IMG/VR virus record: IMGVR_UViG_2548876944_000013
Location: 1-23,600 of that record
Source of the DNA: a virus
Taxonomy: Duplodnaviria; Heunggongvirae; Uroviricota; Caudoviricetes
Reading direction: 5' to 3' (one strand)
Length of the DNA: 23,600 nt
Shown: positions 11,601 to 23,017 of the stretch, in pieces
Layout of the letters: every line of letters starts with the position of its first letter
Numbering within the stretch: position 1 is the first letter of the stretch
Notes under the pieces: generated by a model
Database searches by the model: none
Told to the model about the DNA's origin: nothing
What the model saw: only the letters and a program-made list of their open reading frames with translations
Program-made: the position numbers and the translations under genes

Positions 11601-11608
11601 GTTGGTTA

Positions 11609-12073
11609 TTAGGGATCGGTTGGGGAATTTTTTTCTTCACCCTCACCATCAACGATAATATTTAGTGCGCTCTTTTCGGCTTGAATCTCTGAGAATACTT
11701 TTTCAGGATCATCACCACGTTCTAATATAACGGCAGTACGTGATTTAAGTCCTTTATCAATTAAAGCAATCTCGGCGTTTACGTCTTTAATTGGATCGAC
11801 GGATTCAAAACGCGGACGAATAATAGTAGTGTTGTCGATAATATGCGGAATTGCAGTAATACGAATCGGAACAATACCACGCGCGGAATAATGGCGTAGA
11901 TATGCTTCAAAAATTGGCAATACCACTGTTTCAATTAATTTGTTTTGCAGTGCTTTAACTCGTGTGCGTTGAGTTAATTCACCAAAACGCGCGGCTGAGT
12001 AGTTGATCTGGGAAGTATCACCAGTCAAGCCCTGTTTAAACACGCCTAAGCCCATTGATACGCTAGTAAACAT
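11609..12073 (-). CDS. portal protein, C-terminal portion (out of frame with the upstream portal ORF)
   Basis: Overlaps the 357-aa ORF by 28 nt in a different frame, and this frame is open far upstream of its ATG. No SD before the ATG at 12073. The two ORFs together span ~1.5 kb, the size of a lambda-gpB-type portal gene. Confidence 0.5.
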   Translation of the reverse strand: MFTSVSMGLGVFKQGLTGDTSQINYSAARFGELTQRTRVKALQNKLIETVVLPIFEAYLRHYSARGIVPIRITAIPHIIDNTTIIRPRFESVDPIKDVNAEIALIDKGLKSRTAVILERGDDPEKVFSEIQAEKSALNIIVDGEGEEKNSPTDP

Positions 12074-13119
12074 CGCATCATTGAAGCTGTTAAAGTCATC
12101 ACCGCTTTGGCGCTCTGAATTGCCTTGATCGTTGCCCCTTCCGGCAATTCCTGAATAGTACCCGGTGCAAAATCCTGTACTACTTCCGGCGCTTGATATT
12201 GGTCTTCATCTTCGCCAGTATCAAAATCGTCACCAGAATCTTTCGGACGTTCGATAAAGCCCATAGAGCTAGCTGCAATACGTTTCTGGATGATCGCAGT
12301 TTCGCGGAATGCGTCTTGATGTGCGATATCCTTGATCACTGGTAGGAAGTCAGTCACACCACGCAGAGATTCAGCCGTAAGTGGTTGATAATAATGGCAT
12401 ACTTGCGAAGCCTCGACACGATAGTTATCACCTGTGTAGGTCTGAGTCAGTAGATTGACTTTACGAAACCAGTATGCAACAGGGCGCATTGTGTTCACGT
12501 CATACTCCACACCTTGATATATCGCACGTTCTTTGCTTACTTCACGATTGAGCGACCAGTCGCACTTATCAGCAGACAGGATAGAAACATTTAACTCATT
12601 GTTTTCTTTGGTTAAAACGATGAAGCACTCACCACCCATAACGCGCTCACGTTCAGCCATTACCAGCAGTTCACGGAAGTTAAAGCGACCATTGCGGGAG
12701 AAGCGTTTAGCATTCTGCGCCCACTTCCAGAAAGCATTCTCAATCTGCTTATTCAGTGCGCTATCAAGTTTGCCATTTGATTTAACAACTGACGGCTTCG
12801 GATCTAGGCCAGTACCGACCACCATATCGGTGATGTATTGCGTGTAGCGACTGCCTACGGAAGTGTTTAAGGCCAGAGTACGACCCTGATCATAAAGGCG
12901 CTTACCGTTCGATTTGAGAGCCTTATTGAAGGTTCCGGTAATGGTGTCTTGTTGAAGCTGTCCATCAATGCGATCACCGACCAAGCCCAAAGAACGCTTA
13001 GACAAATCTTTCTGGAATTTTTCTACTTGTTTGTCGATAAAGATTTTTTGTTGTTGCTGGCGGTGATTAGTTTTAACTGGAGTTTCTACCGCCTTTTTGC
13101 GTCGAAAAAGATTAAACAT
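12046..13119 (-). CDS. portal protein, N-terminal portion (357 aa ORF)
   Basis: Position directly after the large terminase gene and an intervening small gene. SD aagggg. Called as portal mainly from position and the combined ~500-aa size of the two ORFs; no specific portal motif was identified. Confidence 0.55.
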   Translation of the reverse strand: MFNLFRRKKAVETPVKTNHRQQQQKIFIDKQVEKFQKDLSKRSLGLVGDRIDGQLQQDTITGTFNKALKSNGKRLYDQGRTLALNTSVGSRYTQYITDMVVGTGLDPKPSVVKSNGKLDSALNKQIENAFWKWAQNAKRFSRNGRFNFRELLVMAERERVMGGECFIVLTKENNELNVSILSADKCDWSLNREVSKERAIYQGVEYDVNTMRPVAYWFRKVNLLTQTYTGDNYRVEASQVCHYYQPLTAESLRGVTDFLPVIKDIAHQDAFRETAIIQKRIAASSMGFIERPKDSGDDFDTGEDEDQYQAPEVVQDFAPGTIQELPEGATIKAIQSAKAVMTLTASMMRCLLAYQWA

Positions 13120-13696: not shown

Positions 13697-15604
13697 TTAG
13701 AACGATGTTACCCAGCTACGGCCTCTATTTGGGCGTCTGGCGATGTTTTGACGTTGTGGTCGTGTGATTGGCTTAGTTTCTTCTATTTGCTCGTCAGATT
13801 GCGATTTAGGAGCTTCTACGGATTCTTCGACAACACGGTTTAAGCTGTCTTTCATTGCAATGAGTTTATCCCATGACATTTTTGAAAGAACGTAGCGAGA
13901 AGCAGCATAGCTATAAACCAGACAGTCGAGAGCCTCGTTTCGGGTACTACCTGGATTTTTCACCCAACGCACGCCAGTAGTAGTACGCTTGATGGATTCA
14001 CTCAAAAGCTGATCGAGATAATCATCAGGAACGGTTTCTGATATTTCTAAGCCAATATGAGGATTATCTTTCAGGTTTCTAACCAGCATTTCACGAACAG
14101 CGGATTTACCAACGTTAACACCCAGCATAAGCAATTCATGACCACCTGTGCGGGTAGGTTTAACCGGAATCACTGGAGCATTACCAGATGAACTACCTTT
14201 GATAGCGTGTAGGTTCTTCCACTTGCCGCAAATACGGTATCCGGCTTGAGTGAATCGACCGTTCGATGTATCAAGGAAGCTGGCGAGCATTGGTACACGT
14301 TCACCATTAACGTTATAGAATTTGGTTTTCTTGAAGTTAACCAGGCGATCCCAAACAGGTGATTCATATCGTTCACAGTTATGATCGTAAAAGCTGCGGT
14401 GATCCAGAATGTAAACCTTATCTTTCGCTACACCTAAGATGGTAGATTCTGCGCGGTCCAATTGCTGGTCAATTCCTGAACACAAGAAAATCACGTCATC
14501 AGGGATATTCTCGATAGAAACATCTGTTTTGAGTTGTTCCAGTTCATTTGCTTCTACTGCCGTGTCCTGATCGTCGTATACCTTGCCTAACACGGTGTTA
14601 AAAAAGGATTGTAAATCAAAGGATTGCCACGCATGACTAAAATCAACCACACAAGCGCGGATACTACTGAAAGGTGAATACAGACGGCTGATCCAGAATC
14701 CTGCTACTTCACTTTCACGGGTTGCTCTCCACTCGCCTTGCGCTACTGCCCTAATTCGTTCCCCTTCTGTCCATGCGTTCTTACAGTGGGGGCAAATATA
14801 ACGAGCGGTATCAGGATCGGGTAAGTTCTTACCATCGATGTTACGCCATTCAAATTGAACGTTTTCCCACTCGATCACCTGGTGTTCCCCGCAATGAGGA
14901 CACGGAACAAAAAACATACGCATATCGCTTGATAACCATTGCTGGTTAATGCTTCCGAGCTTACTGGTCGGGGTACTGGATACGACTAATCGGCCTTCAT
15001 CGCCAAAGGTAGTTAAACGGTTAGCAGCCAGTGCCACCGGATCACCTTCTTCTGAGGCTGTAGCAGCATCGATTTCGTCAAGCAATCCAACCTTTGCGGT
15101 CTTACCACGTAGGGTCGATGGACTGGTTAGCGATACCATGTAAAGGAAGTGATTCGTTTTTAGCTGTAGCTGGTTATTGTTGTTAACCGCATTGCGATCA
15201 TTCTTGTCTGTAACCACGTCTTTTAATGCATCACATGCTTCGATAGACGGTCGGATCTTACCAGCGAGATATTGAGACATTTCTTTAGCGGTTGATTGTC
15301 CGATAATCATATTGCATGGATCGTTAGCCATCTGGTTAAACAGGATACCGTTCAGGATGGTAGTCTTTCCGATCTGCGCACTGGTCATCAGAACATACTT
15401 TTTCTTGTTCTCAAGGAAAGGAGCATCAATCATGCCTTTCTGGAATGACAGCAATTTAACTTTATCCCCAGCTTGAGGACCATCTACCAGCACCATATTA
15501 GCTTCGCACCATTCAGAAGGAAGGAGCTTAGGCGGTGGCGTAATATATTTGGCTGCATTTTTGAGAATCTTTTTTAATTTGGCCTTATTAGAAATTAGTT
15601 TCAT
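13697..15604 (-). CDS. terminase large subunit (GpA family, 635 aa)
   Basis: Walker A-like [11 protein letters not shown] near the N-terminus. CPHCGE...CPHCKN double-cysteine motif mid-protein. Length and domain order match lambda-gpA-type terminases. SD gaggg. Confidence 0.8.
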
Positions 15605-15691
15605 GTAATTACCCTCATTACGAAATATGAAGGTATTTATTAAGTTGTTGATTTTTTGATAAATACGGGTATTAAGATTTAAGGAGGGTGT

Positions 15692-16294
15692 ATGCTAATT
15701 AATCAGCAAGAAAGAGATGAATTAGAATTAGCCTTGTCTTGTACCGATCATGAATATCGTTTGCCAGTTAAGCACCATCACAAGAAGACTGATTACACAA
15801 CATCCGGCTTTAGTCGCGAGGAAGCGAAACAGATTTTAATCGAGTTGTATCGCGATCATGGGTATACCGATATTCATAACTTCTTTAAGAAGCATCGCAC
15901 ATCACAGACAGAGTTTCAGCGAGTCCGTGAATGGTTTGATTTTGATATCAAGCGTTATTATCGAGTGGATGACGGTCCAATCTATCGGTTGCAGTGGAAG
16001 CCGATCAGGGAAGTGCTTAAACAGAAGAGATTGAATCATGCCATTACACGCTATCGTAACGTGGCTTTCAAGAAAGGCTATGGTGATTCAAGGGAATTGT
16101 TTGTAGAACTCGCTAACGTGCGATATAGCCACTATTACAGGAATCCTAAAGAGTTCTTCGAAGTGCTGCGCAAGGTTGATATTAGTCGGGGTACATATTA
16201 TTCACGGTTGAAGAAGTACGGGATTAAGGCAGAGTTCTTTATGTCGGTTGACGATGGAGAACTTTTTCCGATAAAATGTAAGTCCTCTAAATAA
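15692..16294 (+). CDS. hypothetical basic protein (200 aa) with C-terminal helix-turn-helix-like segment; member of a 3-protein paralog family
   Basis: Strong SD aaggaggg. C-terminus [20 protein letters not shown] resembles the C-termini of the 85-aa and 64-aa proteins. Transcribed divergently from the terminase gene. Confidence 0.45.
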
Positions 16295-16323
16295 AGGTGA
16301 ACATTCACTTTAATTTGGAGAAA

Positions 16324-16554
16324 ATGACTATGACTACTAAAGCTACTCGCGGTCGCCCTGCCCGTTTTAATCGTGAACAACTGGCAGCGATTGTAAAAGC
16401 ATACTATCAAGCACCGAAAGGTAAAGAGAACAAAGAACGGGTATTAAATGAGCATGGCTTATCTATAGCCCAGCTATACAAATCCCTACATAAAGTTGAT
16501 TTGAAATTCTTTGTTCAGGTTGACGGTGAAATGGTAGAAGCAACAGGAATTTGA
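16324..16554 (+). CDS. small DNA-binding protein (about 76 aa from the ATG at 16324; ORF track begins at GTG 16297)
   Basis: N-terminus TRGRPARFNREQLAAIVKAYY is a GRP-x-KF/HTH-type motif common in small phage DNA-binding and terminase-small-subunit N-domains. Followed by a strong terminator. Confidence 0.5.
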   Translation: MTMTTKATRGRPARFNREQLAAIVKAYYQAPKGKENKERVLNEHGLSIAQLYKSLHKVDLKFFVQVDGEMVEATGI

Positions 16555-16562
16555 TTCTCTAG

Positions 16563-16589
16563 GCCAATCCTTCGGGGTTGGCTTTTTTT
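16563..16589 (+). terminator. intrinsic terminator (plus strand)
   Basis: 8-bp stem with UUCG loop (gccaaucc-uucg-ggguuggc) followed by seven U. Confidence 0.8.
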
Positions 16590-16602
16590 ATACCTACAGA
16601 TA

Positions 16603-16628
16603 CAAAAAAGCCCCTGAAATTCAGGGGC
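16603..16628 (-). terminator. intrinsic terminator (minus strand) after the Rha-family gene
   Basis: 8-bp stem gcccctga/tcaggggc, followed on the minus strand by uuuuuug. Convergent with the plus-strand terminator. Confidence 0.7.
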
Positions 16629-16636
16629 AAAAATTA

Positions 16637-17452
16637 TTACAGTCCGAAGTGTTCTAGCGATCCAACATTCTGACGAATCATGATAGTCGCTTTATTCTGA
16701 ATCATGATCGTGTTATTCGGTTTAGGCAGTGTCAAAGCTGCTTTTTGTTCTTCTTCAAGAACACCCAATTCAACCAGCACCGGAAGCACATCAACAGTGA
16801 AAGAAAGTTGATAGTGAGCGTTCATGCTGCAAAACGGTATCGCGGAATCATTAGCAACATACCCACACGGCTTGTTATTTTCATCATAGACGCGCTCAAT
16901 GTATCCGGCAGTACGTAAGGCCGTCAGTGCTTCTTTAACCTTCGTAGCGCCCTTTTTAGCACCTAACAAACGCGTCATTGAATGGCTATCTACGGATTTG
17001 CGATGATGTAGAGTAATCAGTTGCTTGTTCTCGCGAGTTTTCTTTAACGCCAGTTCGATCCAGTCGGTTTCTTCAAAGTCTGCATACGGGTTAACGGCTA
17101 ACCGTTCCTGACGCAGTTTTTCATTTTCTTCTTTCAGTCGTTTCCATTCCTGAATAACAATCATTCGACGTTTAACATCGTAACCAGTAACAAGAGTCAG
17201 CGTCATTTCTTCGTCAAGGTGATATTCGGTTTGTTCGCGTCCATATTGGTCAAAATAGATACGCTGAGATTTCAGCGCATCTAATTCAAGTGCTTTAAAC
17301 ATCTTAACAATATCAGCTTTAACGTTTTTGTGTTCTTTTCCGGTAAATTCAGCGATCTGACGAGAAGACATGGTCAGTGGTTTGGTGTTATCAACAACCA
17401 GAGACACGGAAGCAGTTTTAACAGCAGTATTCATAGTAGTAACAGTATTCAT
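16637..17452 (-). CDS. Rha-family phage regulatory protein / putative antirepressor (271 aa)
   Basis: N-terminal region LTMSSRQIAEFTGKEHKNVKADIVKMF is typical of Rha-domain proteins. SD aagggga. Confidence 0.6.
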   Translation of the reverse strand: MNTVTTMNTAVKTASVSLVVDNTKPLTMSSRQIAEFTGKEHKNVKADIVKMFKALELDALKSQRIYFDQYGREQTEYHLDEEMTLTLVTGYDVKRRMIVIQEWKRLKEENEKLRQERLAVNPYADFEETDWIELALKKTRENKQLITLHHRKSVDSHSMTRLLGAKKGATKVKEALTALRTAGYIERVYDENNKPCGYVANDSAIPFCSMNAHYQLSFTVDVLPVLVELGVLEEEQKAALTLPKPNNTIMIQNKATIMIRQNVGSLEHFGL

Positions 17453-17543
17453 AGTAAAATTCCCCTTAATTAACGGTTTTGCGATTTAATCCTCCCTGTT
17501 CCGGCATCACCACCGGAACAATTTTATTTATAAGAGCTATTTC

Positions 17544-17798
17544 TTATTTGTTGTTAGCACACAATCCGCGTAAAGCCATTTGCAAAGGTGATGGTTTCGG
17601 TGCTTTGGATTCGTCTTTATATTCCACATCCACGGTTTCGGTAGCCCAACCAAAGCCCTTAACATAACGACGACGGCGGGTTTCGATCACCCCTGGTTCA
17701 CGTTCACGGAACATCTTCATTAACTTGTCATTGTGGAAGCTATCAGCATCAAAACCTAACAGGATGAAAGGAGTAGTGGTAGTCATTTTATGGTTCAT
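17544..17798 (-). CDS. hypothetical protein (84 aa)
   Basis: SD gagga 9 nt upstream of the ATG. Lies upstream of the Rha-family gene on the same strand. No motif recognised. Confidence 0.4.
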   Translation of the reverse strand: MNHKMTTTTPFILLGFDADSFHNDKLMKMFREREPGVIETRRRRYVKGFGWATETVDVEYKDESKAPKPSPLQMALRGLCANNK

Positions 17799-17997
17799 AG
17801 TGGAAATCCTCTAAAAGAAAGTGAATCAATCTAATATTATTTATAAAGAGAAAATTCTTGTTATTATGAAAGGTGATTGTATTCAGTCGGGCATAGCCCT
17901 CCTTCATAGTTTTGATTAAATCATCATCAAAACGAAGAAGTATCTTTAGAATATAAGAATCTTTCTTTTGGAGAAATAATAATCAGGAAGCAATTTA

Positions 17998-18026
17998 GCA
18001 ACCGAAGGTTGCAATCCCGAAGGGAT
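17998..18026. other. two adjacent short hairpins with GAA/UUC loops
   Basis: gcaacc-gaa-ggttgc followed directly by atccc-gaa-gggat. Confidence 0.4.
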
Positions 18027-18123
18027 ACCAATACCTTTCTAGAAAGTGATTGTTACTCACTTCGTTCGTTTACTAGAATCAGTTAGTAACTAGTATTAAA
18101 TCCCTTTCTAAGAAAATCCTTTC

Positions 18124-18258
18124 AAAAGCGAGTGAACGCCGTAGGCGTGAACGTGAGCGAAGCGAACTATCCAATCCCTTTCGAATCCTGCTTGCAGGTC
18201 TTAGAAGGTGTTGATGGGCGCTTCGCGCACGGCTACGCCGTATTCTTTTTGCGAGATC
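18124..18258. repeat. large imperfect inverted repeat with internal 5-bp-stem mini-palindromes
   Basis: Left arm carries acgcc-gta-ggcgt and gtgagcgaagcg. Right arm carries cgcttcgcgcac and acggc-tac-gccgt. The centre holds cctgcttgcagg. Region is GC-richer than its surroundings. Confidence 0.45.
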
Positions 18259-18372
18259 TTTCTTGAACGTAGTGAGAGAAAACGAGCAAAAAGGAGAACG
18301 TTAGTTCGAATTTTATATTCTATGGTCTGTGGGGCTAAATATCCTTCAAGATCATACACTTATGAGATTGAA

Positions 18373-18491
18373 GTGTAGGGTTAGTGTAGGTGTGTAGGTT
18401 TCATAGTGTAGGTTTGAGGGTGTTATAGTGTAGGTTTACTGGCTAGTGTAGTGTAGGCCAATCCCTTTAAAGTGTAGGTTTGTAGTGTAGG
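18373..18491 (+). repeat. iteron-like array: eight direct copies of GTGTAGG (extended (T/A)AGTGTAGG(T/G)TT)
   Basis: Copies start at 18373, 18384, 18392, 18406, 18428, 18451, 18472 and 18485, all in the same orientation, in a non-coding region. Confidence 0.7.
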
Positions 18492-18599
18492 GTTTTCATC
18501 AAAAATTTTGATAGAAAATTCTTGTATATTATTTAATCATAAAATCACCAAAAATCTCGGTAACCGCATGATTTAAAAGGAATGATCAAAAGGTCGCCG

Positions 18600-18608
18600 T
18601 GCTATAAT
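18600..18608 (+). promoter_or_regulatory. candidate extended -10 promoter (TGcTATAAT)
   Basis: Perfect TATAAT at 18603-18608 preceded by TG at 18600-18601. No good -35. Confidence 0.35.
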
Positions 18609-18688
18609 AGGTTATAAAGGTTGATAATCGTTATCCGCCATTTTCACACAAAAATTTTGATAGTCATTTCTCGCTTAGATCAAGTGTA

Positions 18689-18717
18689 TTGACAACTGTC
18701 AAGGATTATTTTATACT
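18689..18717 (+). promoter_or_regulatory. sigma70-type promoter with operator-like palindrome over the -35
   Basis: TTGACA (18689-18694), 17-bp spacer, TATACT (18712-18717). The -35 sits inside the palindrome ttgacaactgtcaa. Confidence 0.55.
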
Positions 18718-19059
18718 TTTTCTCGTTGGTAGGGGTTGAAATTTTCGAAACAATCCCCATATTGATGATAAGCAAGATTTTTTCGTGTATAAATACATGC
18801 ATGAAATGATTGTTCACTTCTGAAAATCCCCTGATTCACTGTTAACACATACAGCACTGGTTAAACATACAGTACTTTTTCGATTGAATAATGTACGAAT
18901 TGATTAATTATTAATCTTATCTTTAGCAATTCGTGCTCCCACTGATCGGATATACAGTGGTTTTACAGGGTTTTCTGAAAATCATTTTATAAATAGAAGT
19001 ATCGAGGGCGAAAAGCTCTTTTTATTGTCCTTATTAATCCACATTTGAGGAATCTACTT

Positions 19060-19239
19060 ATGGCTAGACCTGTTAAGTTTACTCGTGAAATGATTGTTGA
19101 TATTGCTAAACGCTTTTATGGCGATACTGAACGAGGCGGCGAGAATTTCTTTAAGAAGGAAGGAATTGATAGAAGCGGATTCTATAAGCTAATGAAGAAA
19201 TACGAAATTCAGATAAAGATTAACGTTCAAGTTTGTTAA
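19060..19239 (+). CDS. small HTH DNA-binding protein (59 aa from the ATG at 19060), paralog of the 85-aa protein
   Basis: MARPVKFTREMIVDIAKRFY...GIDRSGFYKLMKKYEI. SD gagg 9 nt upstream. The ORF track starts at an upstream TTG. Confidence 0.5.
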   Translation: MARPVKFTREMIVDIAKRFYGDTERGGENFFKKEGIDRSGFYKLMKKYEIQIKINVQVC

Positions 19240-19282
19240 TCCACTTTCACTGAGAATTATATGATGGCTTTAAAAATAAAAA

Positions 19283-19313
19283 AGCCTCCCTGTTGGCGCA
19301 AGGAGGCTTTTAG
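19283..19313 (+). terminator. hairpin terminator/attenuator between the HTH gene and the acidic-protein gene
   Basis: agcctcc...ggaggct, a 7-bp stem with a 12-nt loop, then uuuu. Confidence 0.4.
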
Positions 19314-19358
19314 CATGAAACATTAAAACTAACACAGAGCATTCAGGAGTATTTATAA

Positions 19359-20354
19359 ATGAAAAATTCTAAGCGCATCACCTTCAACCTGTTTATTAAA
19401 TCCAACGGCAAACTGAACATTACCGTCATGGAAGGTAAAGCAAGCAAACAAGACAAATCCTTTGAAGTAGTATCCGGTAAGACTCTGACCGAAATGCGTC
19501 AGAATGCTGGCATCAAAGACGGTGCTGAATGGCAGATCACTAACCGTTTCGACAAACGTCACGTTAAACCTACACTGGTAGAAGGTGAATCCGTTTATTG
19601 CTTCGCTCGTGCTGTTAAAGCTGATGAAACTTACTATCTGGCTGTTGTTAAAACTGCTTCCGGCTTCCGTGCTGTAATGCATCACAAGAGCAAACGTAAC
19701 GAATACGGCGTAGAGACCCAGGAAGTCGCAAAACGCTTCCGTACTGTTGCTACCGAATCCACTGTAAAGGATGTTTCTGGTACTGTTAACACCGCTAAAG
19801 GCGGTTCCTTCTACAACCACGCATTACAGGTTACTTCCTCCTTCTTCTGCAAAAAAGAAGCACAGAAAGAAGTTTCTCCGGTAGTAGTTGAAGAAGTTAA
19901 AGAAGAAGTTGCAGTGGTTGAATCTTCCGAAGTTGAAGCACTGAAAGCACGCATTGCTGAACTGGAAGCTGAAAACGCATCTCTGAAAGCTGAACTGGCA
20001 GCACAGGAAACCACTTTCGAAGTAGCAGCGGTTGAAGTTGAAGCAGTTGAAGAAAAATCCATTGATGAAGAACTGGAAGAACTCCTTAACTATCGCTGGG
20101 GTGTTGTTGCAGAAGTAGAACAAGAAGTTGCTCCGGTAGTTGTTCCGGTTGAAGTTGAAAAAGAATCCGCACCTGTTACTAACTTTGAATCCCTGCGCAA
20201 TAACTTTATGGCTAAATTCAAAACCACTTGGGAAGATACCGAAGAAGAACAAGAAGAGATTGAAGTAAACGAAGACGAGATCCGCGAAGCACAGATGGCA
20301 CTGCATGACGCTATCTACGACACCAACTACAGCGCCTACGCATACGCAGCTTAA
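19359..20354 (+). CDS. highly acidic protein (331 aa) with strongly optimised codon usage; function unknown
   Basis: SD caggag 9 nt upstream. Codon choice (CGT, CTG, GGT, GCT, TCC, ACC, GAA, AAA) matches that of the capsid and tail tube genes. The C-terminal half is Glu/Val/Ala-rich with a coiled-coil segment EVEALKARIAELEAENASLKAELAAQE. Confidence 0.6.
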   Translation: MKNSKRITFNLFIKSNGKLNITVMEGKASKQDKSFEVVSGKTLTEMRQNAGIKDGAEWQITNRFDKRHVKPTLVEGESVYCFARAVKADETYYLAVVKTASGFRAVMHHKSKRNEYGVETQEVAKRFRTVATESTVKDVSGTVNTAKGGSFYNHALQVTSSFFCKKEAQKEVSPVVVEEVKEEVAVVESSEVEALKARIAELEAENASLKAELAAQETTFEVAAVEVEAVEEKSIDEELEELLNYRWGVVAEVEQEVAPVVVPVEVEKESAPVTNFESLRNNFMAKFKTTWEDTEEEQEEIEVNEDEIREAQMALHDAIYDTNYSAYAYAA

Positions 20355-20369
20355 TAGAGGGGTGAATCT

Positions 20370-20612
20370 ATGATGAATCAAAACAAAGAATTTCTGGGTA
20401 ATCTGATGTTAGAAATTACCAAAATGAAAGAAAGAATGGTAGCGATGGAATCAGAGATTAAAACACTTAAAGCTGATAATAAGGCGTTGAGAAAGTCCTT
20501 AAAGCTGATTGATGAGACTAATGCGGTTATGATGGATCATGTATTCCCTGAGTGGCGAAATGAAACTAAACCTACACAACATAAGAAACTTACACTTCGA
20601 ATTGTTGCATAA
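20370..20612 (+). CDS. small coiled-coil protein (80 aa), likely co-transcribed with the 331-aa gene
   Basis: Start 15 nt after the upstream stop with SD agagggg. Heptad-like MKERMVAMESEIKTLKADNKALRKSLKLI. Confidence 0.5.
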   Translation: MMNQNKEFLGNLMLEITKMKERMVAMESEIKTLKADNKALRKSLKLIDETNAVMMDHVFPEWRNETKPTQHKKLTLRIVA

Positions 20613-20617
20613 AAAAA

Positions 20618-20635
20618 GGGACTCCGAAGAGTCCC
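20618..20635 (-). terminator. hairpin terminator (7-bp stem; A7 on plus side, T7 on minus side)
   Basis: gggactc-cgaa-gagtccc. U7 follows on the minus strand. Lies directly after the 80-aa gene stop on the plus strand. Confidence 0.55.
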
Positions 20636-20720
20636 TAGTAAGTTTAGGTTAGGTTTGCACAACAAAGATGAGGTTATAATGAACATAATGCTACATTATT
20701 CTTTAAAGCCAGAAAAATAA

Positions 20721-20736
20721 CCGCCCCGAAGGGCGG
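20721..20736 (-). terminator. intrinsic terminator (minus strand)
   Basis: ccgccc-cgaa-gggcgg. The minus-strand reading has a UUCG loop followed by uuauuuuucu. Confidence 0.5.
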
Positions 20737-20892
20737 GAGGATTAATACTCAATCTATACTTGTTATGTTTTTATGTTGTATAGATCCTGACTATGAAAAC
20801 ACTGTACTGGAAGTGTGTTTTTATGGCTTTTAATCGGGAATCCTCAAAGAAGATCCCCTGTTAATAACCATAAGGAGAAAAGGCAGATTACA

Positions 20893-21069
20893 CTATTATT
20901 TAGTATCCTTTTTACAGCAACTAAAAAGAATAAACAAAAAGAAGCATACCCAGCCGTAAGGCGTACCGATTAGAAATTTGAAAAACACCACCAGCGATAT
21001 AAAAATCAATTTAATGCCAGCGACGATAGTCAAAAACAGCAGAGTAGCAAAGTAGACAAAAAGATCCAT
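20893..21069 (-). CDS. small membrane protein (58 aa, two predicted TM helices); not in ORF track
   Basis: Translated by hand: MDLFVYFATLLFLTIVAGIKLIFISLVVFFKFLIGTPYGWVCFFLFILFSCCKKDTK. SD agagga 7 nt upstream. Confidence 0.5.
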
Positions 21070-21122
21070 AGATAATCCTCTTTGAAAACGACCATCATCT
21101 ATAGTTCAATTCATCGATTTAA

Positions 21123-21225
21123 TTAATGATACTTGAAAGCGTTACACAAAGTAGAAATGCCAATATGTGCCAGTGAATATACGATAGTTAATCCTACAGC
21201 CAGATAAATCAAAAATTCAACCATA
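21123..21225 (-). CDS. small hydrophobic peptide (33 aa, one TM helix) from the internal ATG with good SD
   Basis: MVEFLIYLAVGLTIVYSLAHIGISTLCNAFKYH. SD gagga 7 nt upstream. The longer 83-aa ORF in the track overlaps the upstream gene and has no SD. Confidence 0.45.
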
Positions 21226-21254
21226 GGTAAATCCTCAAATAAGAAAAAGGTTAG

Positions 21255-21273
21255 CGGGGGATGTTCTCCCCCG
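21255..21273 (-). terminator. hairpin after the Nu1-like gene (minus strand)
   Basis: cggggga-tgttc-tcccccg, a 7-bp stem. A U-rich run begins 5 nt downstream on the minus strand. Confidence 0.45.
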
Positions 21274-21324
21274 TAGACGTTGACCAGCTCAACATCCTTC
21301 ACGTATATATTTAGTATAGAAATT

Positions 21325-21879
21325 TTAAGACACATCAAATTCATCGTCTTCTTCTGGTTCTTGTTCCGGTTCATCGATTAATGCTAATTCTTCTTCCTCG
21401 TCTTCTCCCAAATCCGCATTTTCGAACAAGTCCCCTACTTCATTTAAACGACGCTCGATGATCTCCCTTAGCTTATTCTTCAATGTTTTCTGATCAGTGG
21501 CAGATTCGAGAATTTCTAAAGCGTCGATTGTGGCGATCTGCAAAATAGTCTGTTTCACCTTTCCGCAATATTCCGCTAGTTCCTGTTCTACATACCCGAC
21601 AGGAATCAGGAGATTCATTTTTTCCTGGTTCTCTCGTTCGGCTGCATCTGCCAAAGCACGCTCACGGCGTAATTTCTCTACATCGATTTGTTCTTTGATA
21701 GAAGTTTGTTTAAGCGGGTTGATAATATTTTTCAAGACCCATTCTGTTCCTTCTTTGGCTGGCACGCGGCGGGTATTGGTGTTAAATGGCAATCCCCTTT
21801 CTAACCATCGCTTACCGCCACCATTCAATGTATAACCATATAAACGGGAAATTTCTGTAAGGGTTAATTCTTCTTTCAT
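21325..21879 (-). CDS. Nu1-like DNA-binding protein, candidate terminase small subunit (184 aa)
   Basis: N-terminal winged-HTH-like LTLTEISRLYGYTLNGGGKRWLERGLPF and EKLRRERALADAAERENQEK resemble lambda Nu1 as I recall it. Acidic C-terminal tail. It is 5.7 kb away from the large terminase gene. Confidence 0.45.
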   Translation of the reverse strand: MKEELTLTEISRLYGYTLNGGGKRWLERGLPFNTNTRRVPAKEGTEWVLKNIINPLKQTSIKEQIDVEKLRRERALADAAERENQEKMNLLIPVGYVEQELAEYCGKVKQTILQIATIDALEILESATDQKTLKNKLREIIERRLNEVGDLFENADLGEDEEEELALIDEPEQEPEEDDEFDVS

Positions 21880-22003
21880 TGGTTATCCTCCATTAAATTT
21901 GCGTAATTTTATTTATTGGTTTTACGCACAATCTAAGCGCCTAAATCGCATTCTAACGAAGGGAAAGATCCAGTAATGGTAAGGGCTAGGAAGTGGGTTA
22001 ATA

Positions 22004-22039
22004 GTCGCGTAGCGACCGCGCCATAAGTGAAGTGATCAC
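22004..22039. other. candidate cos/packaging-site palindromes upstream of the Nu1-like gene
   Basis: gtcgc-gta-gcgac (22004-22016) followed by cgcgcc and gtgatcac. Inverted ttgcgtaa/ttacgcac elements lie between it and the gene start. Confidence 0.25.
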
Positions 22040-22237
22040 GTTTTAGAATCCCGCCCGCGTATCAAATACCGGGGTGCCGAAAACTCCCTTTATTTCATCC
22101 GTGGAACAGTACCTTTTTAATTTGTCAAGCATTAATTTCTTAATTTAATTACTAAATCTCATCCCAATAATTGAAAAAATATCAAAAATCAATAAAGTAA
22201 GCATCTAAAAGTCAGTCCATACCAAAAGAGGTATAAA

Positions 22238-23017
22238 ATGAAAAACATTATCGCTGCTATCGTGCTTTCTGCTACTGCTTTCGGTGCTGATGCTGCGTCC
22301 TTTGATTGCACTAAGGCTACTACCAAAGCAGAGAAGTTTATTTGTGCTAATGAGTCAATCTCCGCACTGGATTCTAAACTTCATGAAGTATATGTTAAGG
22401 CTGTTAAGATTGATCCGTCTCTTAAACAAGAGCAACGCAACTGGAATAAAACTGTTCGTGATACAATGATCAATATCGGGCAGATTCAGCCACTGGAGGC
22501 TGTATACAACGCTCAAATCCAAAACTTGATGAATGTATTATCTAAAGAAGAAACCGCGTCAGAGAGCGATTCAGAGACTTCTGCGAAGATTGAAGAAGAA
22601 CAACCGAAACAGGAAGAAGTAAAGAAACTGAATGTTACCGCGATTTACGCATGTACTACAAAATTTACATGGAAAGTTATCGATGGTGAGGAAACAGAAG
22701 CTGTAAAAGATAAACTCTACGGAAACAAAACTTTTGATAATAACGGCGGTAAACTTAAGATCAAAATGGTAGACGATGTTCCTGTATCTTTTGTGTATTC
22801 CGACAAGTATGATGTTTATAAATCAAGTCTCAAGCCATCTAAAGAGAATCCAAACGCAATGGAAGGTAAATCCAAACAGGATGCTATTGGACGTGTTAAC
22901 ACTTATAACATCTGGGTAAGCAAAAAAGGTGACATGCGTCTTGAAGTAATTGAACCAAAATTTGATTCTGAATATAAACACACTCAATTTGCATGTGACA
23001 TGGTAGACGCAGAGTAA
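22238..23017 (+). CDS. secreted protein with N-terminal DUF1311 (LprI-type lysozyme-inhibitor-like) domain and uncharacterised C-terminal domain (259 aa)
   Basis: Signal peptide MKNIIAAIVLSATAFGADA. SFDCTKATTKAEKFICANESISALDSKLHEVY...QRNW matches the DUF1311 cysteine pattern. SD agagg. Codon usage is the 'high-expression' type. Confidence 0.55.
   Translation: MKNIIAAIVLSATAFGADAASFDCTKATTKAEKFICANESISALDSKLHEVYVKAVKIDPSLKQEQRNWNKTVRDTMINIGQIQPLEAVYNAQIQNLMNVLSKEETASESDSETSAKIEEEQPKQEEVKKLNVTAIYACTTKFTWKVIDGEETEAVKDKLYGNKTFDNNGGKLKIKMVDDVPVSFVYSDKYDVYKSSLKPSKENPNAMEGKSKQDAIGRVNTYNIWVSKKGDMRLEVIEPKFDSEYKHTQFACDMVDAE

Follow-up and report, generated by a model that had tools for sequence, protein, structure and literature searches.

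Where does a gpA-type packaging system keep its small subunit and its DNA site when the two terminase genes do not lie side by side? The question is raised by a 23,600-nt stretch of tailed-phage DNA (IMG/VR virus record IMGVR_UViG_2548876944_000013, positions 1 to 23,600; this whole stretch is referred to below as the window), which makes up the right two-thirds of a ~35.8-kb Escherichia coli prophage interrupting hicB. Here the gene for a gpA-type large terminase (TerL) and the sole Nu1-like open reading frame (ORF) of the window, encoding a 184-aa protein (21325-21879, minus strand), are separated by 5.7 kb (6.3 kb from start to start). A sequence-only reading of this DNA had recognized that physical split of the packaging module and had placed a Rha regulator, a family of helix-turn-helix (HTH) proteins, iterons and an acidic protein in the gap, all of which we recovered at the coordinates it gave; it left a choice between a module broken up by an inserted accessory island and a 184-aa regulator standing in for an unrecognized small subunit. 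The best joint explanation, and in our judgement a likely one, is that the 184-aa protein is the small terminase (TerS), that its gene is uncoupled from TerL in the clade of temperate enterobacterial phages to which this prophage belongs, and that a linked non-coding block of ~80 bp moved along with it.

Identity of the 184-aa protein

Profile comparisons establish, at the level of sequence, that the 184-aa protein belongs to the Nu1 family. The PHROG family annotated as ‘terminase small subunit’ (phrog_57) matched residues 24-168 of the protein to positions 31-189 of its 199-position profile (E 1.6e-10), and lambda Nu1 itself matches the same profile over its full length (1.3e-76), which identifies PHROG 57 as the Nu1 family; in all intermediate relatives of the protein, phrog_57 was likewise the only or the best family. 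A profile built from 15 close homologs aligned to lambda Nu1 residues 1-98 with a probability of 83.5% (hhalign, E 8e-6). When the same profile was used in an exhaustive HMMER search, 218 relatives were collected, mostly ~150-200 aa long and matched across much or all of their length; the Pfam class of 76 sampled relatives was Phage_Nu1 in 35, DUF1441 in 11 and HTH_17 in 4, and many are also found directly with the lambda Nu1 N-terminus (e.g., P0101, with a profile E of 1.4e-12 and a Nu1 E of 2.3e-8). AlphaFold 2 (AF2) models, of modest confidence (pLDDT, the predicted local distance difference test, 69 and 74), run from a strand-helix-helix-strand N-terminus through a long helix and a helical C-domain to a disordered acidic tail. 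The predicted layout (N-terminal winged HTH at ~1-40, long helix at 41-89, helical domain at 94-153, acidic C-terminal tail at 157-184) is compatible with that of Nu1.

Genomic context provides the second line of evidence. Two homologs, P0079 (profile E 1e-28) and P0080 (1e-25), are encoded directly upstream of gpA TerL genes and overlap them; the corresponding TerL proteins are 41% identical to that of the window, and the genes that follow (a ~160-aa gene, portal_2 and a protease-capsid fusion) are all homologous to window genes. By locus, orthologs that overlap a gpA TerL gene are found in the uncultivated phages L034, L035 and L046. Because these homologs overlap TerL and share its downstream genes, the 184-aa protein can be identified by sequence comparison as an ortholog of genes in the canonical TerS slot. 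Next to the gpA-type TerL is where the gene is found in L034, L035 and L046, and is not where it is found here or anywhere else in the clade; adjacency is a feature of context, not of the protein. Among close homologs, the NCBI Prokaryotic Genome Annotation Pipeline (PGAP) labels some ‘terminase small subunit’ and most ‘hypothetical’.

Both subunits resemble lambda gpNu1/gpA, as the TerS falls in the phrog_57/Nu1 superfamily and TerL carries both gpA-type domains (GpA_ATPase PF05876, 1.6e-56; GpA_nuclease PF20454, 3.9e-44), for which PGAP names it ‘terminase gpA endonuclease subunit’. The small subunits are also alike in size (184 vs 181 aa) and in predicted layout, which begins with a winged HTH, continues through helices and closes with a C-terminal tail; in gpNu1 the winged HTH is the DNA-binding domain at residues 1-68 (PDB 1J9I).

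Two results weigh against the assignment. Pfam (including PF07471 Phage_Nu1) and NCBIfam scans of the 184-aa protein returned nothing significant, so that in this respect the window TerS differs from its lambda counterpart, and structure (fold) searches were not significant, only MerR-type winged-HTH proteins being top-ranked. Against the sequences of solved structures, the protein and its close-family profile found Nu1 only below threshold (E 0.1-0.7). An alternative is that a Nu1-like ancestor gave rise to a DNA-binding regulator or recombination directionality factor with no remaining part in packaging, and that another protein, such as the 200-aa product encoded beside TerL, is the small subunit. 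The gene does lie at the prophage end near attR and far from TerL, its MerR-like winged-HTH N-terminal fold class is common to excisionases (compare the HTH_17 class of 4/76 sampled relatives), lambda Nu1 and the homolog in the phage DCP80 (described below) weakly match phrog_66 ‘excisionase and transcriptional regulator’, and the 200-aa gene adjoins TerL in all relatives. Yet the likeness to Nu1-family proteins reaches well past the HTH, and orthologs hold the canonical slot overlapping TerL, which contradicts the suggestion of the sequence-only reading that the true subunit had gone unrecognized. The 200-aa protein, in turn, consists of two small HTH-like modules that also occur in separate 64-aa and 85-aa proteins, is without terminase similarity, and has no homolog in relatives with adjacent TerS and TerL. 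We therefore consider a regulator quite improbable, and a Nu1-family small terminase, as read from these comparisons, very probable.

Gene order between the terminase subunits

To ask how the separation arose is to ask how widely it is shared. The same order was found in 25 of 25 IMG/VR relatives and in E. coli ETEC1739, with TerS and TerL starts 6.3-8.2 kb apart: TerS with two small hydrophobic ORFs; opposite-strand genes; a non-coding iteron region; an 84-aa gene and Rha; 85-aa and 200-aa genes on the opposite strand; and TerL. It recurs in L002 and even in L007 (TerS 40%, TerL 50% identity), and in a small phage of 30.6 kb within the DCP80 record (TerL 43% identity) TerS comes after the lysis genes and before early genes on the opposite strand. 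The gap was present in all 27 relatives examined, and no clade member lacking the intervening region was found. Outside the clade (TerL identity at most 41%) the two genes are adjacent; inside it (at least 43%) they are split, and because each arrangement is the rule on its own side, a single ancient rearrangement explains the pattern most simply. Homologs of TerS are found in Salmonella and Proteus as well.

These comparisons, made across relatives, demonstrate that the 5.7-kb separation is a conserved, inherited gene order, and not a recent island insertion. That an island recently entered between adjacent genes in this strain or its close relatives is now very hard to credit. Adjacency in distant relatives does imply a rearrangement at some point, and the region is partly mosaic: 12 of 27 related loci carry an optional cassette (the 331-aa and 80-aa genes), and the iteron cassette is exchangeable. 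The split nevertheless holds in every member down to TerS identities of 40% and TerL identities of 43-50%, no clade relative without the region was found, and whatever regulatory or origin-like functions could be recognized in the prophage lie in this region: the rest of its 35.8 kb showed no recognizable repressor gene, replication gene or other regulator, and defence-system models had no match among the intervening proteins. The region is mosaic, but its backbone is a core part of the phage. The sequence-only reading had named conserved spacing together with annotation as a regulator as grounds against its proposal; the spacing is indeed conserved, but the annotations read ‘terminase small subunit’ or ‘hypothetical’ and never regulator.

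In lambda the two genes overlap, whereas here they are 5.7 kb apart with early/regulatory genes between them, and TerS forms its own short transcription unit, which ends at predicted terminators at ~20.6-20.7 kb. A precedent for cos phages with non-adjacent, separately transcribed terminase subunit genes exists in P2-like phages, in which TerS (gpM) and TerL (gpP) belong to divergent operons a few genes apart within one late-gene cluster; there, unlike here, the subunits are not separated by an early region, and gpM is not of the Nu1 family. The parts are ordinary (a Nu1-family TerS and a gpA TerL), and what differs is the gene order across the clade and a candidate site unlike lambda cos. Our understanding of the terminase mechanism is unchanged by this modest curiosity of gene order. 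It matters for annotation, in that pipelines seeking the small terminase beside the large one miss TerS in this prophage lineage.

The DCP80 record itself (GenBank PQ671644, ‘Escherichia phage DCP80’, 140,978 bp, filed under Straboviridae; our loci L003 and L040) is a scaffold of two genomes. Positions 1-30720 hold a circularly closed ~30.6-kb gpA-terminase phage related to the prophage, with a 111-nt terminal overlap followed by N10, and the rest is T4-like sequence (motA, rIIA).

A conserved block upstream of TerS as candidate cos

In lambda, cosQ, cosN and cosB lie upstream of Nu1, and the corresponding DNA was examined here by aligning the sequences around TerS from diverged relatives, which defined three layers (Table 1). 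Nearest to the gene is an inverted repeat, TGCGTAA-N15-TTACGCA (21900-21928), enclosing AATAAATA (21910-21917); its arms and the TAAATA core are conserved across TerS N-terminal types. Next comes a type-specific variable segment of ~115 bp, and beyond it a deeply conserved block of ~80 bp.

The palindromes that the sequence-only reading had offered as a possible nicking site, GTCGCGTAGCGAC (22004-22016) and GTGATCAC (22032-22039), both fall in the variable segment. Palindromes of these kinds are no more frequent in the window than in shuffled sequence (5-3-5 palindromes, 27 vs 26.5 +/- 4.8; 8-bp palindromes, 71 vs 105 +/- 9), and GTCGCTACGCGAC goes with one kind of TerS N-terminus: every locus of the window type has it (21/21), whereas no locus of the PAVxKW type does (0/3), all three having GGTTTAGTTAA in its place. 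A packaging site close to TerS stays plausible, with the conserved block a better candidate than the palindromes named for it, which are at chance frequency and absent with the other N-terminal type. A variable segment that tracks the N-terminal type of TerS is how a cosB-like specificity region would look by analogy: cosB specificity is type-specific between lambda and phage 21, and the segment here similarly lies between the conserved element and the TerS gene.

The block consists of AAAAGGTACT, a ~22-nt variable spacer, GAGTTTTCGGCA, a T-rich stretch and an GCGTATGTGA-like box, and nhmmer found it only once in the window (22125-22044). Its conservation and linkage to TerS are evident across the sequences compared. 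It is recognizable in phages whose TerS is only 30-50% identical, being kept in L007, L033, L034, L035, L046 and L053, and 45 of 5426 complete E. coli genomes carry it, each of them once and always in the prophage. The region upstream of TerL contains no copy, nor does the block ever lie beside TerL where the genes are split, and prophages with either of two TerL alleles (59% identical) carry it unchanged. In L004, which had been left out of model building, the block (E 1.2e-5) follows TerS at a distance of 40 nt, in an intergenic region between converging genes. Its occurrence in divergent, tandem and convergent intergenic contexts speaks against a promoter and in favour of a cis-acting DNA site for the terminase. 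It is located 165-245 bp upstream of the TerS start, comparable to the 190 bp from cosN to Nu1 in lambda. Judged from sequence, the block is the strongest candidate for cos, the site recognized and cleaved by the terminase, and we lean gently towards that placement.

The uncultivated phages L034, L035, L046 and L053 resemble the window clade in their subunits (TerS 32-37%, TerL 37-41% identity), their portal and protease-capsid fusion, and the same block upstream of TerS. They differ in having TerS next to TerL, overlapping or abutting it, with the early genes located upstream of the block and TerS, whereas in the window clade the cassette sits across the early region.

Several other readings of the block were examined and set aside. 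As an RNA element it found nothing in Rfam, and RNAalifold gave a consensus fold with zero pairs; as a promoter it offered no sigma-70-like site on the TerS strand, and in L004 it lies downstream of TerS; and carriage by satellites was dismissed given a single copy per genome, always in the prophage. A likeness seen by eye between AGGTTAC ... GGGTTTTCGC and the lambda cosN flanks was discounted as chance, the hidden Markov model (HMM) of the block having missed the lambda cos junction.

Against the combined account stand four further points. The block HMM reached a best E of only ~1 on circularised lambda, with nothing at the cos junction. A tblastn search of TerS against 50,697 phage records found no isolated close relative from which genome ends could be read; in the same records a search with P0080 found none and one with P0079 only the DCP80 record, whose ends are uninformative on cos. 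Linkage alone would suffice to make the TerS N-terminus co-vary with the DNA next to it. Finally, the window lacks, at ~12111, 1 nt that E. coli PK8568 has, and this deletion breaks the 503-aa portal gene (11608-13119, minus strand) into two overlapping ORFs (12046-13119 and 11609-12073); the copy of the prophage in the window may be defective, or the deletion may be a homopolymer error in the assembly.

Could TerS be real and the block something else, such as a transcription or replication factor site, a terminator or an insulator, with cos or pac elsewhere (in the palindrome segment, inside TerS or in the 17.8-19.0-kb region)? Here it is relevant that searches of phage records and of virome and metagenome contigs found no virion-end data, that the block is unlike lambda cos and lacks the GC-rich, dyad-symmetric look of lambda cosN, that in L004 the second conserved box makes up the stem-loop of a hairpin which, with the T run behind it, resembles a terminator, and that it is the variable segment that follows TerS type. 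Yet the sequence of the block and its orientation relative to TerS are kept in promoter-like, tandem and convergent contexts, no conserved RNA fold was detected, and the block is the only non-coding element conserved so deeply, neither the palindromes nor the iteron cassette being clade-wide. We regard this alternative as unlikely. Contig ends from viromes and metagenomes add little: one 2-kb contig begins inside the block at the conserved/variable boundary, which is best explained as an assembly break, and a 19-nt block match in another contig, whose dense overlapping ORFs suggest an unrelated and probably high-GC organism, is probably chance.

If the block is cos, packaging could proceed much as in lambda. 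TerS dimers would bind the type-specific DNA between block and gene through the N-terminal winged HTH, as at cosB; the acidic C-terminal region would recruit TerL; and TerL would nick at or in the block, as at cosN, with packaging starting there. The mechanism is probably of the 5'-cos type. Read around the circular genome, TerL is followed by the head, tail and lysis genes, then by (integrase, attP, moron), the conserved block, TerS and the ~5.7-kb early/regulatory region, which leads back to TerL; virion DNA would start with TerS and the early region and end with lysis, integrase, attP and the LprI gene. A wider proposal, that cos and TerS form a self-contained cassette of ~1 kb moving independently of TerL (preceding TerL in some members, separated from it by the early region in others, and elsewhere with the site beyond the opposite end of the TerS gene), that virion DNA starts with TerS and early genes, and that the ~80-bp bipartite block is a new, non-lambda recognition and cleavage site for gpA-family terminases, is in our view possible and still rather doubtful as a whole. 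Relatives with the cassette in three positions nonetheless amount to a small natural experiment on packaging-module rearrangement, and the block-TerS linkage supplies a concrete, testable cos candidate for a lineage without an isolated close relative in the searched phage collection.

Neighbouring genes, motifs and prophage setting

Table 1 Features of the window discussed in the text
Feature	Position	Strand	Basis or remark
TerL, gpA type; heads the head-tail-lysis gene string	13697-15604	-	Pfam GpA_ATPase, GpA_nuclease; phrog_15 5e-136
AT-rich divergent intergenic region (87 bp) between TerL and the 200-aa gene	15605-15691		conserved in relatives
200-aa protein (two tandem ~65-aa HTH-like modules) and 85-aa protein (one), transcribed away from TerL	15692-16554	+	module alignment
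Rha-family regulator	16637-17452	-	Phage_pRha 2.7e-11; phrog_63 anti-repressor 1.3e-18
84-aa protein	17544-17798	-	ORF beside Rha
Non-coding region (1.2 kb) with inverted repeat and iterons	17799-19044		no Rfam family
64-aa HTH-like module protein, acidic coiled-coil 331-aa protein, 80-aa coiled-coil protein	19045-20612	+	module alignment (64-aa)
Two intrinsic-terminator-like hairpins closing the short TerS unit and the converging plus-strand unit	20617-20736		minus-strand stems 20636-20617, 20736-20721
Two small predicted hydrophobic ORFs (57 aa, 83 aa) downstream of TerS	20896-21069, 21123-21374	-	translations
Probable TerS, divergent Nu1-family member, 184 aa	21325-21879	-	phrog_57, profile-profile match, context of orthologs, AF2 model
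Inverted repeat, candidate operator/promoter element	21900-21928	-	20 nt before TerS start codon
Type-specific variable segment (~115 bp), from block to TerS side	21929-22043	-	candidate TerS-binding region, by analogy with cosB
Deeply conserved non-coding block (~80 bp), candidate cos	22044-22125	-	nhmmer E 3.7e-18
LprI-family cargo gene (moron), between TerS cassette and prophage end	22238-23017	+	Pfam LprI 6.8e-6

Of the four copies of the ~65-aa module (15692-16554 and 19045-19239), the 200-aa protein has two in tandem, and a single copy forms the 85-aa protein and another the 64-aa protein; the pattern is R-P-x-x-F-[ST]-R-E ... NFF ... G-I-S ... FY ... L-K-K-Y ... V-D-D-G-E. Proteins bearing it had no Pfam, PHROG, NCBIfam or PADLOC match. 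Rha alleles range from 37 to 100% identity among relatives. The non-coding region (17799-19044), for which Rfam gave no match, contains a GC-rich inverted repeat (18144-18164 / 18219-18239) followed by at least nine iterons, AGTGTAGG(T/G)TT, at 18366-18495, and is a probable origin or regulatory hub by its sequence; no replication initiator gene was recognized anywhere in the prophage. About half of the relatives have unrelated sequence in place of 18132-18495, between flanks that are conserved, in the manner of an exchangeable specificity cassette for origin or immunity.

Downstream of TerS and ahead of the terminators are the 57-aa and 83-aa ORFs, the longer of which shares 50 nt with the 3' end of TerS. 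Both are skipped by PGAP/RefSeq, and most relatives have recognizable counterparts, L031/L032 (43% identity) among them.

The two TerL alleles occur in otherwise near-identical prophages with the same TerS (window 13697-15604 vs L009 8368-10272). Overall they are 59% identical, with the first 14 residues identical and the last ~60 residues 80-97% identical. The shared N-terminus was considered as a signature of TerS contact and rejected, since the conserved first 14 aa and C-terminal ~60 aa could be recombination junctions.

The heptamer ATAAATA (AATAAATA or TATAAATA) occurs in 13 copies in the 35.8-kb prophage, among them those in the window at 15640, 17531, 17844, 21916 and 3278 (minus strand) and at 15659, 18789 and 18989 (plus strand), and those in L001 at 3482, 6965, 13251 and 14529. 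For eleven of the 13, a start codon follows on the same strand after 25-72 nt; genes preceded in this way are, among others, TerS, TerL, Rha, tail tube, a NUMOD3 gene, the lysis cluster and the genes for the 84-aa, 200-aa and 64-aa proteins. No sigma-70 consensus promoter was found for TerS or TerL, and from its sequence the motif looks like a phage-specific promoter element akin to the T4 late TATAAATA box. AATAAATA stands 29-30 nt before both the TerS and the TerL start codons (for TerL at 15634-15641 on the minus strand, 29 nt upstream), and TAAATAC is kept upstream of TerL even in L007 and L033. This does not establish co-regulation of the two subunits, because the motif also precedes early-looking genes.

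The chromosomes of E. coli PK8568 and 14EC017 are 99.9% identical to the window. Literature searches did not find this prophage lineage described, and a scan of species-representative genomes turned up no relative. The right end of the prophage (attR in hicB) lies at ~23269, where the match to thousands of E. coli genomes starts, and a large serine recombinase is encoded at the far left, beyond the window. All structural genes are on the minus strand (TerL, a 164-aa gene, portal, a 668-aa protease/capsid-type protein, tail and lysis). The first ~380 nt of the LprI-family gene (22238-22620) share 95-97% identity with a hypothetical gene of RB49-like T-even phages (Krischvirus) of E. coli and Shigella, a likeness in sequence that suggests recent exchange between a temperate prophage and virulent myoviruses.

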